A stretch of 50,516 bases of DNA from a virus (taxonomy: Duplodnaviria > Caudoviricetes). Made by a program: the position numbers. The stretch covers positions 1 through 50,516 of IMG/VR virus record IMGVR_UViG_3300032132_000765; one strand, 5' to 3'. Shown here in pieces: positions 9,001 to 15,000 of the stretch. Numbering within the stretch: the stretch's first letter is position 1; each line of letters opens with the position of its first letter.

Positions 9001-12000
9001 TCATCACCCCTAACCACCCAGCACTCGCAATCCGAATGACGGAAGACTTCCCCGTTAGGGCCTACGTAAATGTCACCGTTGCGAACTAACTGGCTTAGCT
9101 CGACTACCTTTCCGATGTTCTGGATCAGGACGTTCGCGCCGACTATCAGCGCCAGATCGCCCGGCTTGAATTGATTGCTCACAGTGGCGCCCCGTTGGTG
9201 ATTCGATCTGCAAGGCCGTGAGCGAGAGCCCAGCCGGTGAGTAGTGCAAGGGTCACTGCGAAACCCCGCCACCATGCGTAGCGCAGGGATCGTTGTCTTT
9301 GGCTAGCCATCACATGGCCCTCCCGATCGCTGCCGCAGCGCGGACGGGTCGCTGATTGCGGCGCTGCTCTGATGCTGTTGCCCAGCGGCAGTTGTCCGGC
9401 TCGTAGTTCCCATCATTGTCGATGCGATCTATGCTCAGGCCGCGAGGCTTTTCGCCCATATCCGCTAGGAAGTTCTGAAACTCATGCCATCTCTCGCAGA
9501 CTGTTATCCCCCGACCTCCGTAGTTTTTGAAGTCAGGCCGATTCACATTTCCGCAGCGCGCAAGCATGTTCGACCAGCACACATAGGTTGCTGTCCGACT
9601 GAAACCATGTCGCACCGCCTTAGCCCTTCTAGACTCCTCGTTGAGGCAGCCGCAGCTTTTGGTCTTGCCGGCCTTCAACTCACAGGCCGCAACTGACTTT
9701 AAGGCTCCGCATGTGCAGCGACACACCCAGCGCGGCCTGCCCTGCCGTAAGTGGCTTCTCTCCACCACGGTAAGTCGTTCGAAAACACGTCCGGTTAAGT
9801 CCTCTGGAACTGCGCCCCTGACCCCTTTTACGTACGGCATAGCGCCTCTCCAATACTGGCTGCCGCTCTTACGATCGCGCGGCGCCAGCCTGACGTGTAG
9901 TCCTCTGGCCCGTAGAAATACTCTATGCACTCGACGCCTTTTTCGTCTTCTGCAACAACGCAAGCCTCTGAAGACAGAACATTCAGACATAGACCGGCAG
10001 CCAGCCGCAGCGCATCGCCGTCGTCGGTGAGCGGGTTCCACCAGAACTTATGAAGCTGACTTAGCTCTGGCGGGCATATGCCTAGGCCAGCTCTGTATTC
10101 GCCCGCGATCCCGCCGGCCTTAGCCGCCAGCTCCAACAATTCGCGGTCATCCATCACACACCCCCCAATAGCGCCACGTAGGCGAGAGTTCCGATAAGCG
10201 ATCCGGCTACGGTGATGCCTAGGGCGCCGGCTAGCTCCTTGAGGACGTAGGCGGTCATGGCTGGGCTCCTTGCAGGGCGGCGTCGATGGCTGTGTCTAGC
10301 GCTTCTTCCGCTAGCTCCGTCAGGCCGGACCGCAGAACGCCGGCGCCTATCAGGACTACGTGCATATCGTCCCGCTTGTTCTTGTCGCATCCCCAAGCCT
10401 CGTTGCGCAGGTAGCGGTACCGCTCGGCATCCTTCTTCAGCGCATCCCGCTCAGCGAGAAGGGCGTCGTAGTCGGAGGCCAGCACCAACGGGACCGTGTG
10501 AACATCAGTCAAGTGGTTCGTCATTGGCGTGTACGCAGGGTCACCGCTCAGTAGCACCGGTACAGAGCCAGGCATGATGTAAAAACGCTTCACTTCCTTG
10601 CTCATGCCGCTCTCCTGAATCCATAGATTCGATCAACTTTCATGCCCCAGGCCTTCTGGACGATGCCGTGGAGCCTGCAGAACATCGCCGCACTGATCTG
10701 GCCCGTCTCGCGTATCCCCAGCAGGTAGCCGTACAGGACGTTGGCGTGGTAGTCGGCAAAGGCCTGCGAGCTGGCTTGCCGCATCAGCCGGAAGTGCTGC
10801 TTGATGGTTTCTTCAGGCTTCATGCTGCCTCCCGCTTGGCGTCGATCATGTTCCACAGCCGATCTTCGATCCGCTCCGCGTGCTCATCGGCAACCGCTGC
10901 GCAGCCATTCCGACCCAGTTCCGTTTGGTTTCCGTCCTCGTCGAAGACGGTCCCGCTGGTGATGGTGAATTCAAGCTCGCTGTAGCCGTAGTAATCATCC
11001 GCGCTGTCCCGGCACCGATAGTCAGGTTCAACGACTGCGCAATGGGTTACCTCAACGGAGAGGAGGTATTCATCTAGGTCGATCTCGAATTTCATCGTGG
11101 AATCCTCGCGAAATTGCACCAACTGCAAAGCCCCTCGTTTACAACGGCGGAAACGCTGTCATCCGGGCACGGCTGTTCGCGGCGCCCTATGGGTCCGTAG
11201 TGCTTCATGGTGGATACCTCGGTGCCCGGATGGGCGGTGATTTGTCTAAACAGCCATTTCGAGCTGCGTTTCGCGCTGCCAGACGGCTGCGCTGTTGTGC
11301 GACTCAATGCGGGACGCGATGACCTCGGCGCGCTGCCCTGCGGTTGGCGGGACGTACATGCCAAAGCGCCCGACGCTGCCGCCGTTCACTGCTGCGTTGG
11401 TTGAGTCTGCGGAGGCGAATGGGAGGCGAGAGAAGATTGCAGGGTCAAGCATTCGCAATCCGTGAAGCCGACACGCTGGCCGACCCTGATCGTCGCAGAT
11501 TGCGTTCATGGCATCGCCGATCCGCTTCCACCATGAATCTGTGCCAGGGCTTGCCCATTGTCCTGAGCTGCCAAGTGCCACAGTTCGCCATTTCTCCGCT
11601 AGCCGTTGCAGACGCTCGATTGATTCGTGCAAGTGCCAAACAGGAACGCCCGGCAGGTGGCTGGGCCATTCTTCGAGAAGCCGGTCATTTGCCGCCTCGT
11701 CTCCGTCGATCACGTCAGGGATCAGCGCCCAATCAAAACCAGGGTGTCGATGCCATTCATCCACCCATTGCACATAGCCTTCGACGTCGAGCTGGCCGCC
11801 CTGCTTCCATACCGTGAAGGCGCCGTTATCGAACACGAAGGATTGGCACACGTCGGCAACGATGCCCATGTCATCGCGTCGCGGGAATGGGACAAGCGCG
11901 TGCCGGCCAGCCAGGAAGCGCGCCCCGTCCTGCCTGTTGCCGCCTATTGGGGTGCCGTGGTAATGGATCATGCCAAAGCCCTCCGTTGCGACAGCAGCCA

Positions 12001-15000
12001 CGACCAGACCCCGCCGCCGATAACCTTCGCCAAAAACTGGCCGAGCACGATGTGGGGCATCAGCGCGCCGAACGCGATGAGCGGAAATATTGTGGAGTCA
12101 ATGGCCGCAGCAGCGGTGTTGCTTGCGTTCGACTTGATCGGCCAAGGCTTGCGCATCAGCGCCTGGTACACCGCGCCGTCTCCAAGAGACGCGAGGACGA
12201 ACGAAACGCTGGAAGCGATCGCGATAGTGCCGCCAGCTGGGTTAATTGCGTAGCTGATGACGCCGGCAAGGACTGCCAAGCCGGTGACGCGCAGCAGCCC
12301 GATACGCTCGTGCAGATGATCACGCAGAACAAAGTCAAGGCCGATCAGCAGAAAGGAATTAACGATCGACCACCACGGGCCAAAGACAAAGACGAGAAAG
12401 TTCGCCGCGCAAAGGGCTAGTACGTAAACCGCACTGGCAAAAGCCATAAGCTCTCCAAGCCGCGTCCTGCGCAGCGATCAGTTATGTGTGGAGTTGCCCG
12501 GATGGGCGATGGAATGAATGCCTGCTACCGATTCCCCGGCAGGCGCGCGGCAGGAGTTGTCTTCCGTGACGCCGGATCGGCTCCAGCTGATGGTCATGGC
12601 GCTACCAGCACCGCGCGCCGTACGGTTATCGCAGACCTTGGGGTCTGGCCTGGCTGGCTCAGGCGGGGTTCAGCCTTTCCAATTCCTTCTCCACCAATCC
12701 CACATGTACAGCGCTGCGAGGATGGCGCATAGGATCAGGACTTCGGGGCCGGTTAGCATGGCGTGCCGCGGGCCTTGGCGATGGCTGCGCGGGCTTTCAG
12801 GGAGGCTTGTTCGTATCGGATCAGCGGTGGGCACTCTTCAAGAAACGTGTGACGGTCCTGCTTCTCGTGGTGGAACATTTCGCAGCTGGCGGCTGGAGCT
12901 GACTGGTTTAGTAGCTCCAAAGCCTCAAGCAAGTCAGGCGCGGCGGCGATCAGGCGGGCGTCGGCTTCGGCGTTGCCATGCTTGACCTTGCCCCCTCCAG
13001 GCATAATCACGAGGTTGCCGACATTGGCGATGCAGTACGCATCATCGGCGCGCTCGACGACCCACGGCCCCGGCGTATATCCGTTGCTCATACTCTCTCT
13101 CCATTCTGTTAATCCCCGCTGCAGCCTGTAGCCAAGATGCGGGGGCGGGGTGGTTACCAGGCGCCGAACCAGATGCCGATGCCGTGAACGATGGCGACCG
13201 GGAAGAAGATGGCGCCGCCGATCAGGAAGCCCCATTGCTCTTCGGTGAAGCAGCGGACCAGGTGAGTGATCCAGGCGGCAGGGCCGGTGATCACTAGCGC
13301 GATGAAGAAGATCGCTGCCAGCATGTTGTCTCTTACTTGGTAAGCCTTTGCCTTCATGGTGTTGCTCCGTTCGTGTTGTGATTCATCAAGCCGCCAACTG
13401 CGCCTCTTCCATCCGCTGCGCTCTCACTACCACCTGAGAGCGTGAGGTGTCGCGGCGCTCGGTTGATTCCCAATGGCCACTCTTGCGAATGTCCTGAAAT
13501 CGACTCAGGCATTACTTGATGCCGCGCTTTGCGTAGAAGTAATCGGTAGAGGTGATGACCGCACCGCCAAGCCTGCACCTTAGAACTGGAAGGGTCGAAT
13601 GCTCCGGGCAGTGCGCGAGCTCGCATCCGATCTCGTCAGGATCTGCATCGGTCATACATTCGTGCGTAGGCCACTTTTCAAAGTTGGCAACCGCCCAGGC
13701 GGCTATCTCCCTGTGACGTTTGTTCATCACTCGTCACCGAAAAGCATGTCGCTCTTGATCGCGCACAGCTGCTCAAGGGTGCTTTCGTCGCCCATCTTTG
13801 CGGCTGCTGCCTGCATCATGTTCAGTGCTTCAAGAATGCGAATTCCCTTCGATGAGGCTGCTTCAACAACGTCTTGGCGGGTGATTTTGCGGTTCATCGT
13901 GCATCTCCTTGGTTTGGGTCTTGCTGCTTTCCAATGCACCCTGTCGCCAAGGTGCATCAGGAAACTCTTTCGCTCGTCTCGTGCGCTTCGTGCCCGCTGC
14001 TGATTGCAGGCCGTAAGACTTCGTTTGGTTGGCGGTGGGCTTCCCTCGCACGCGCCTCGATCAGCGTTGGCGCGTGGTCGCTGGGTATATACAACCTGCT
14101 GCGTACAGCCCTGGTGCCGGTTGAGTTAGGCACACAGCAGGAGGTCCGGCGCTTCTCATAGCCGAGGCTCGGAGCGCTAATTCGATTCGGTGTTTCTGGC
14201 CTCCGTTACTTGCCACGGTGGGCTTGGCTGATAATTCGGAAATCCCGAATTACCCATCTCCGCTGCGATTCCTTGTCTGAGTCGTCTCTTTCCCGTTGCC
14301 GCAACTGGCGTCGCACCGGGTGACATTTCGCAACTTCGCGTGGCTGCATGTGGAGCCACGGCCAGTTCCAGAGCTGGCATGGGGCGGGGAATTTGTTGAG
14401 CGCGATGTATGCCGAAGCAGACCCCGCCGCGCTGATCTCAATTTGTTAAAGAGCTTTAGGCCGTAGCCAGGGCATCTCTGCCGTTCGGCGCGGTGTTCTG
14501 CGCTTCGATGGATGTAATTTAAGCATGCTGAATTTATCGGTCAAGTCTTTTTTTAAGTTTGCTGAAATTTTTGGGCAACAAAAAGCCCGCAGAGGGCGGG
14601 CTAGGGTGTCAGTGTTCTGATCCGGTCCAGATGACGTGGACGCTTCCGTCTGGTCGTCGTCGCATGGTCACGTTGTCGGCCTCCTCGATCTCTTCAAGAA
14701 GGCGCTCCCAGTCATCCGGGCGATCATCCGGGCCCGGCCTCAGATTGGCCTGCCGCTCGCGCTGCGCTGTTGGCGCCGCCAGCGCTAGATTCACCCGACG
14801 CACCAAGCGGCTATAGGTCGATGCCTGGCAGTGGTGCGTGATGGCGTGAGGTTGCATCCGATTCATTGTGGCCCTCATTACTACTGGATATCCACACAGT
14901 AATTGTGAGGGTTTCACCGGGCAAGAGGAAACATGGTGGCCGGTTGCCACATGTAAAGAAGTGGCTCAGACCTAAGTAGGAGAGGGGTGCGGCAGATACA

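Follow-up and report, generated by a model that had tools for sequence, protein, structure and literature searches.

A short VUT/YhhQ-like membrane protein coupled to a zinc-less phage DpdA: a putative cassette for import and insertion of a 7-deazaguanine base

How might a phage use an enzyme of the 7-deazaguanine family when its genome holds no recognisable gene for making such a base? The question is raised by a two-gene cassette at positions 11246-12447 of the provirus IMGVR_UViG_3300032132_000765, a record whose whole stretch of 50,516 nucleotides (nt) was analysed and is called the window below. One gene encodes a short membrane protein of the VUT/YhhQ family, a putative importer of a 7-deazaguanine base, and the other a short phage member of the DpdA family of guanine transglycosylases. 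An earlier note, made from the sequence alone, had read the pair as a salvage module and had found no folE, queD, queE or queC in the prophage. Profile searches bore out this absence: QueC (PF06508), PTPS/QueD (PF01242), GTP cyclohydrolase I/FolE (PF01227) and radical-SAM proteins (PF04055) had no match in the 50.5-kb record. The base must therefore come from the host or from outside. We consider it probable that the VUT protein imports a deazaguanine base and that DpdA inserts this base into DNA; support for this reading comes from homology and context, and the function of this particular pair is predicted from them.

The cassette and its two proteins

Both genes lie on the minus strand, with the 159-aa membrane protein gene first (11968-12447; open reading frame (ORF) map and Pfam) and the 241-aa enzyme gene, dpdA, second (11246-11971; ORF map and phrog_887). 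The VUT stop codon overlaps the dpdA start codon in an ATGA at 11968-11971, which reads TCAT on the plus strand, exactly the junction described in the earlier note. Shine-Dalgarno-like sequences precede both starts, GGAGGG (11979-11984) before dpdA and GGAGAG (12451-12456) before VUT. An alternative upstream GTG start would give an enzyme of 251 aa; the ATG is favoured because homologues likewise start MIHYHGTP. Judged by its sequence relatives the cassette is real far beyond chance, as both proteins have hundreds to thousands of homologues.

The enzyme translation carries, in order, the motifs DNGAF (48-52), VPVWH (109-113), LHGL (169-172) and ADST (188-191) that had been taken as signs of the tRNA-guanine transglycosylase (TGT) family. 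Its only cysteines are Cys42, Cys159 and Cys167, leaving no C-terminal CxCxxC, or CxCxxC...H, zinc site, again as claimed. Its PHROGs assignment is phrog_887, 'queuine tRNA-ribosyltransferase' (E 7.9e-70); no Pfam or NCBIfam model matched the enzyme, and no PADLOC model matched either protein. The family is large: clustering at 90% leaves at least 7614 proteins, and clustering at 50% leaves 1289 clusters. The close relatives, from Pseudomonas species, are named only 'hypothetical protein'. We aligned 61 members, 32-67% identical to the query (60 of 150 listed representatives of about 216-274 aa, mostly near-full matches, with fragments and fusions excluded). D48, H170, D189 and S190 are invariant in this alignment, and the nearly invariant positions include H5, G6, A51, P85, D86, G90, N95, H113, E116 and G134, with D86, H113 and G134 conserved in at least 90% of members.

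Two phage enzymes place this protein more closely. Comparison by hhalign with the DpdA of Escherichia phage CAjan (Queuovirinae, gp35) gave a probability of 98.9% (E 3.9e-17, 173 columns), with DNGAF, LHGL and SADST in register with the catalytic motifs of CAjan and H170 aligned with the histidine of its KLHAFG. A conserved histidine at 'position 196' of phage DpdA1 is described as absent in DpdA2 (PMC6884629), and H170 may be the counterpart of that histidine in the DpdA of phage 9g. CAjan DpdA also lacks CxCxxC, so the missing zinc site is not special to the enzyme studied here. The CAjan protein is longer, at 306 aa against 241 aa. The other relative, gp032 of Salmonella phage 7-11 (234 aa), is 31% identical over 230 aa (E 5e-32); both are short phrog_887 DpdAs, and neither phage has preQ0 synthesis genes. 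Phage 7-11 differs in being large and virulent and in having no VUT annotated beside gp032. The earlier note had called the enzyme a divergent subfamily; it belongs, rather, to a recognised group, the short family of 'DpdA-only' phages that includes 7-11.

An AlphaFold (AF2) model of the enzyme (predicted local distance difference test score (pLDDT) 95.4, predicted TM-score 0.91) is an eight-stranded alpha/beta (TIM) barrel. Exhaustive structural comparison by VIA-align ranked first Cap10 of type IV CBASS, the cyclic oligonucleotide-based antiphage signalling system (9ntn_B, Z 15.5, 231 residues), followed by ArcTGT (15.2), bacterial DpdA (7UI4, 13.7, 215 residues aligned) and bacterial TGT (13.0); the likeness to Cap10 is only a lead. 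Among the predicted viral structures of BFVD, 30 matched at E <= 1e-3, and all of those with a name are phage 'queuine tRNA-ribosyltransferase'. At the sequence level, neither the single enzyme nor the 61-sequence profile picked up a TGT or DpdA in the PDB; the profile returned coiled-coil noise only. The check that the earlier note had proposed for a TGT-like TIM barrel, run here by hhalign and structure searches, placed Cap10, ArcTGT, DpdA and TGT among the top neighbours, and its TGT/DpdA-like assignment stands on the barrel model, phrog_887, the CAjan alignment and the conserved catalytic aspartates.

The enzyme shares its TIM barrel with the bacterial DpdA of the Dpd system, along with the same types of active-site residue in the same order. 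The bacterial active site comprises Asp95, Phe99, Asp130, His181, Gly206/207, Leu236 and Asp256 (PMC10164549), to which D48/F52, D86, H113, G134, L169 and D189 would correspond, going by order and similar spacing and not by superposition; D86 would then be the Asp that recognises the base. The bacterial protein, of about 410 aa, has a CXCX2CX22H zinc site, a motif that TGTs carry as well, and four family-conserved insertions (Ins1-3 and Ins8), and it needs the DpdB ATPase (PMC10164549). Compared with its 413-residue chain (7ui4_A), the phage protein lacks the zinc site and the insertions and has no PADLOC match. The ParB-like DpdB family was not met among the neighbouring genes scanned, a scan that included no search aimed at DpdB. 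The enzyme is thus a member of a short, zinc-less phage DpdA family, neither a canonical TGT nor a bacterial DpdA.

The membrane protein matched Pfam Vut_1 (PF02592) at 38.8 bits against a cut-off of 27.2, with residues 71-143 on model positions 64-140, the C-terminal half, which upholds its earlier assignment as VUT/YhhQ-like. Two NCBIfam queuosine-precursor transporter models scored below their cut-offs (TIGR00697, 22.6 against 50.95; NF008406, 15.4 against 252), and the model nearest to VUT is described as a preQ0/preQ1 transporter. PHROGs assigned the protein to phrog_4899, 'unknown function' (E 2.6e-35). All 120 homologues listed are 153-177 aa long and carry PF02592, and some Salmonella and Citrobacter entries bear the name 'VUT family protein'. 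CAjan has a homologue of the same length, 159 aa (gp41, 'putative preQ0 transporter'), 29% identical over 90 aa; unlike CAjan, the window lacks synthesis genes and its two genes overlap. Across 21 phage VUT forms, Y8, N16, R42, D43, A78, S79, D117, F121 and K141 are invariant, as are an RD and a D..F motif. About six hydrophobic stretches can be seen by eye, and the depositors of the homologue in phage mEp021 report six transmembrane segments. Going by its family, the protein is a compact phage version of YhhQ, and transport is predicted. Escherichia coli YhhQ (COG1738), a preQ0/preQ1 transporter, belongs to the same Pfam family; the phage form differs in its length, 159 aa against 221 positions in the NF008406 model, and its scores stay well short of the equivalog cut-offs. 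Among YhhQ homologues, some transport queuine.

Partners in other phages and movement of the cassette

A single-protein VUT search of IMG/VR returned ten loci, all ten with DpdA directly downstream. In five of them the VUT is 71-73% identical to that of the window and the DpdA only 35-37%. We then searched with an alignment of 21 VUT sequences: 399 of 440 candidate stretches encoded a relative, and the best 80 of the 399, holding 63 distinct VUT sequences, were examined. A same-strand DpdA lay within 262 nt at 78 of these 80 loci, as VUT-then-DpdA in 28 and DpdA-then-VUT in 50 (counting the nearest DpdA), with the reservation that the surveyed loci are not phylogenetically independent and such counts overstate the number of independent events. 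The two unpaired loci are L153, in a complete phage (record G001) without such a DpdA, and L159, which offers only 165 nt upstream of VUT. As the adjacency is kept through changes of gene order and with very different partner DpdA sequences, it argues for a functional link between VUT and DpdA, and the coupling of the two genes proposed in the earlier note is strongly supported by context.

The pair is also found in several of the named phages whose VUT neighbourhood was inspected, namely Pectobacterium phage PEAT2 (gp18/gp19), Flyfo siphovirus Tbat1_6, Acinetobacter AB3P2, Escherichia Opt-719 and Enterobacter Phc. Each joins a short VUT (35-64% identical to that of the window) to a phrog_887 DpdA (37-44%), in reversed order in AB3P2, and RefSeq names the PEAT2 products 'VUT family protein' and 'queuine tRNA-ribosyltransferase'. 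We also noted a 12.7-kb viral contig (G002, the record of L164) with two DpdA paralogues, C1:4711-5373(-) and C1:8560-9279(+) (E 2e-74 and 8e-104 against the family profile), one of which adjoins a VUT gene.

Focusing on the 80 loci with the closest DpdAs, 78-100% identical to the query, we found a different partner. The gene for an 81-aa protein stands immediately upstream of dpdA in 66 of the 80 loci, separated from it by 0-12 nt in 63 of the 66, as at L016:5759-6004 and in Pseudomonas phage Epa33 (L001:5756-6001). It falls in phrog_37496, 'unknown function', and has no Pfam match. Its model (pLDDT 95.6) shows the beta-beta-alpha-alpha-beta-beta arrangement of a T-fold. In the PDB it comes closest to QueF-Like archaeosine synthase (5jyx and 5k0p; E 4e-4 to 2e-3, TMq 0.67-0.78, 19-23% identity), with GTP cyclohydrolase I and QueF ranking behind. 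Cys12-Pro13 and Glu34 are invariant in the 20 of 63 distinct sequences that were aligned, and Cys12 would be the thioimide-forming cysteine of QueF enzymes. In 'DpdA-only' prophages, the 81-aa protein seems to be a mini QueF-like partner that has so far gone unrecognised. Epa33 and about 66 IMG/VR relatives therefore resemble the window in having a closely related DpdA (78-83% identical, and 92-98% in L008, L010 and L013) with a partner likewise coupled upstream, and differ in that the partner is a T-fold protein of QueF-Like type, not a transporter. In Epa33 the DpdA homologue, 80.5% identical, is directly followed by a 696-aa C-5 cytosine DNA methylase (L001:6740-8830), which sets two DNA-modification genes side by side.

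The three loci with DpdAs 92-98% identical to that of the window carry, instead of VUT, the QueF-like protein and a 127- to 133-aa nucleoside 2-deoxyribosyltransferase-like protein, whose gene lies between the QueF-like gene and dpdA (L010:5634-6035, L013:5634-6035 and L008:5143-5526). The PF05014 match exceeds the cut-off at L013 and at L010 (there 32.1 bits, with 28.8 required). L008 has an additional HNH-like ORF after the deoxyribosyltransferase-like gene, and the codon at its DpdA start reads Ile. Since near-identical DpdAs have an importer as partner in one arrangement and a preQ0-handling enzyme in the other, the family is tied to 7-deazaguanines independently of homology. This suggests that the DpdA substrate is the same in the two arrangements, most simply preQ0.

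The borders of the cassette are marked by a 17-nt direct repeat found by repeat search, with one copy just past the dpdA stop (11223-11239) and the other 48 nt before the VUT start (12495-12511). The copies are 16/17 identical. Their 14-nt core has exactly two occurrences in the window, a number reached in none of 100 shuffles. Of the loci from L006 to L094, only L006 and L007/L086 share the repeat pair. Relatives are similar in nucleotide sequence only as far as the gene ends: the match of L011 is confined to 12426-11244, and that of L008, L010, L013, L016 and Epa33 to dpdA.

Other metagenomes contain cassette-free forms: Logan contigs from runs X4, X9 and X21, of three studies, join the flanks at or near the repeats. 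The joints of X4 (11223 to 12443) and X9 (11223 to 12445) rest on sides of only 34 and 30 letters, obtained at 90% likeness, and should be taken with caution. The sides are long in X21, where one 638-nt contig on 12493-12762 continues directly on 11147-11221. Run X4 also has a 1678-nt contig that spans 11147-12514 with the cassette in place. Parts of the window left uncovered in X19, an RNA-library run described below, and in X21 count as no evidence. Taken together, the limits of similarity, the repeats and the joined flanks show that the 1.2-kb unit is gained or lost whole.

How much of this is new? DpdA-only phages were the largest group of DpdA-encoding phages in 2019 (group 3, 76 of 182; PMC6884629), and phage YhhQ homologues, as well as the possibility that DpdA-only phages use uptake, were noted in 2019-2020 (PMC6884629, PMC7544227). 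With RefSeq already naming both members of the PEAT2 pair, the earlier note had rated the novelty of the module too high. Since each half of the cassette comes from a phage family already on record, the pair is a well-documented case of a known kind, and no new type of system is revealed. Literature searches found no functional study of the VUT-DpdA pair and no description of it as a unit, with the proviso that the supplements of PMC6884629 and PMC10516641 may list some pairs. What the present analysis adds is the near-obligatory adjacency of DpdA to VUT, the swap with a mini QueF-like partner, and a repeat-bounded cassette with empty-site forms. On the role of DpdA-only phage enzymes, the survey of VUT and QueF-like partners gives a concrete handle: it predicts that modification by DpdA-only phages depends on precursor supply, and the minimal two-gene unit is directly testable.

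Proposed working and competing explanations

In the working that we favour, the inner-membrane permease of VUT/YhhQ type would import a 7-deazaguanine as the free base (preQ0 or preQ1 most likely), supplementing or replacing the host's own preQ0 supply. The short zinc-less DpdA, translationally coupled to it, would then exchange guanine in double-stranded DNA for the imported base. Exchange would proceed by double displacement as in TGT and DpdA, with D189 as nucleophile, giving a covalent Asp189-deoxyribose intermediate, and D48 as acid/base; a covalent Asp intermediate with an Asp acid/base has been proposed for bacterial DpdA (PMC10164549). From its location in the leftward early region, the cassette would act on replicating phage DNA, and DNA replicated after induction or infection would become partly resistant to restriction. 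Precedent for the enzyme and for the benefit comes from CAjan, whose dpdA knock-out loses all dPreQ0, and from CAjan and 9g, in which restriction resistance through modification has been shown (PMC6884629).

Several observations weigh against this reading. The VUT match spans only half of the Pfam model, and the protein falls below the NCBIfam equivalog cut-offs. Pfam TGT (PF01702) was matched by none of the 61 enzyme family members at E <= 1, the query included. Foldseek gave no match in the PDB at E <= 1e-3, with bacterial TGT on top at E 1.9e-3 mixed with aldolases and TrpA, for which reason we relied on VIA-align, BFVD and hhalign; in VIA-align, however, the margin over generic TIM barrels is small, with aldolases at Z about 13-13.7 against 15.5 and 15.2. 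VUT lies within 6 kb at only five of the 80 closest DpdA loci (75 are without it), all five among the eight loci at 92% identity or above, and as most close DpdA relatives do without VUT, it must be accessory. The yhhQ of CAjan was deleted and studied, and proved dispensable for modification (PMC7544227). Of the two DpdA-only phages tested, 7-11 had 0.02% of G as dADG (50 dADG per 10^6 nt) and Orion had none (PMC6884629), so the activity of the DpdA-only family on DNA is weakly documented. Cap10, the best structural neighbour, handles a protein-linked base and not DNA (10.1101/2025.04.06.647259).

Finally on this side, VUT occurs without any alignment-family DpdA in at least two complete phages, record G001 and Enterobacteria phage mEp021. 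In mEp021 (L096:2962-4229) VUT is followed by a phrog_757 'DNA methyltransferase' with no Pfam match, and an N6-adenine methyltransferase precedes it. The phrog_757 protein is unrelated to DpdA (hhalign probability 0.5%), no enzyme-family DpdA occurs anywhere in mEp021, and the permease there may serve another DNA-modifying enzyme.

The closest competitor keeps the same enzymology and changes the base. VUT would import preQ1, queuine, CDG, ADG or an unrelated purine analogue, and DpdA would be tuned to it. This would account for the near-absence of known modification in DpdA-only phages grown in laboratory media (0.02% dADG or nothing), and specificity is plastic in the family, as DpdA2 of VH7D inserts preQ1, preQ0 and CDG (PMC10516641). 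The description of the NCBIfam model nearest VUT covers preQ1 as well as preQ0, and the replacement of VUT by a QueF-like partner in relatives implies an end-product base other than plain preQ0 there. Against it, DpdAs 92-96% identical to that of the window (L010 and L013) pair with the QueF-like protein, and since the same DpdA serves both arrangements, preQ0 is the simplest common substrate; moreover, every DpdA tested before 2023 inserted preQ0, according to PMC10516641. We regard a base other than preQ0 as unlikely. In a related form, to which we also give only a small chance, the cassette would be a precursor-dependent DNA-marking device whose substrate is exogenous queuine, preQ1 or an undescribed deazapurine and not host preQ0. 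If so, modification would occur only where the base is available, which would explain the near-unmodified DpdA-only phages of laboratory media, and VUT and the mini QueF-like protein would be interchangeable suppliers of a non-preQ0 base to the same small DpdA.

Import of a base for insertion into replicating phage DNA has also to be set against a role in the lysogen. Here the pair would act as a moron with its own promoter, marking host chromosome and prophage or changing the host's queuosine economy, in the service of lysogenic conversion or of the exclusion of other phages. In favour of this, the PHROGs category of phrog_887 is 'moron, auxiliary metabolic gene and host takeover', the two genes are acquired and lost together, and bacterial Dpd systems use DpdA for self-marking (PMC10164549). 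In addition, the 305-nt gap on the minus strand between the upstream gene (12753-13235) and the VUT start, at 12448-12752, has room for a promoter owned by the cassette. A scan for promoters and terminators found no promoter-like site in this gap, however, and no terminator after dpdA; there is no restriction partner and no PADLOC match. As the same pair is present in virulent Drexlerviridae phages, where lysogeny is impossible, a purely lysogenic role is argued against, and we think it quite unlikely.

A tRNA target, which the earlier note had allowed for beside DNA, is very unlikely. The enzyme would then be a queuine or preQ1 tRNA-ribosyltransferase, fed by the importer, that modifies position 34 or another guanine and retunes translation during infection. 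This would fit the database name 'queuine tRNA-ribosyltransferase' and the presence of ArcTGT and bacterial TGT among the top structural neighbours, but such names are automatic transfers, the Pfam TGT model finds no family member, the zinc subdomain is missing, the characterised homologue closest to the enzyme in sequence acts on DNA, and the window has no tRNA genes. Least probable is a Cap10-like counter-defence against type IV CBASS or Qat, acting on a protein-linked 7-deazaguanine, for example by capturing or transferring the NDG mark: Cap10, a remodelled member of the TGT family that binds the deazaguanylated N-terminus of a protein (10.1101/2025.04.06.647259), is the top structural match, but its Z is tied with that of ArcTGT, there is no PADLOC Cap10 match, the operon with Cap9 (QueC-like) and a CD-NTase is lacking, no QueC-like gene (PF06508) being found in the record and no CD-NTase gene nearby, and an importer and a QueF-like enzyme fit a free base, not a protein-bound one.

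Expression signals and the surrounding provirus

The earlier note had the cassette expressed early from pL. The leftward early-region position agrees with this, whereas the promoter- and terminator-like sites are no more frequent than expected by chance and the gap before VUT could hold a promoter of its own, so early expression may be proposed from position. The scan yielded one promoter-like site where 2.9 were expected, TTGACC and TAAATT separated by 17 nt at 14516-14544 on the minus strand, downstream of the cI block; only its position makes it a candidate early-left promoter. The terminator-like sites, eight found against 8.2 expected, are consensus matches only. One, a hairpin with a T-run at 15004-15024 on the minus strand, ends the block made up of cI and two further genes, and a second, at 14584-14602, follows the cI block. 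In the RNA-library run X19, a single contig of 242 nt matches the interior of the VUT gene without differences; RNA-library contigs do not show transcription, and we draw nothing from it.

The provirus is 50.5 kb long with 61% GC and is rated 100% complete by CheckV. Profile matches to gene families give it a lambdoid-type layout. An integrase gene (1-1152, minus strand) is at the left end, a leftward block holds genes for SSB (6880-7335), an exonuclease (7357-7974) and Erf (7958-8728), and a cI-like repressor gene is at 16325-16999 on the minus strand. The rightward part has a CII-like gene and genes for DnaB, terminase, portal, major head and tape-measure proteins. The host is probably a Pseudomonas, an assignment drawn only from the source names of the approximately 80%-identical DpdA homologues, phage Epa33 and the GC content. 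A scan of genome contigs with VUT gave a single distant actinomycete match (34% identity) and no host genome.

Other genes of the window drew our attention. Two in the early-left region encode HNH endonucleases, at 5226-6038 (phrog_1891) and 9310-9750 (phrog_374), both on the minus strand; for the second, the annotated start is in doubt, as a longer GTG ORF extends to 10041. The 392-aa protein encoded at 3421-4599 on the minus strand ends in 56 residues that match the R67-type dihydrofolate reductase domain (PF06442, E 3.3e-21; phrog_31682), and its N-terminal 335 residues gave no match. After the cI-like repressor gene come two genes (15028-16298, minus strand), in the position of rexA/rexB in lambda, which run up to the strong terminator-like hairpin at 15004-15024. 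The second of them, 15028-15783, has a DUF1828 domain, belongs to phrog_1960, and weakly resembles PDC-M24B, a candidate defence family of PADLOC (E 3.8e-5).

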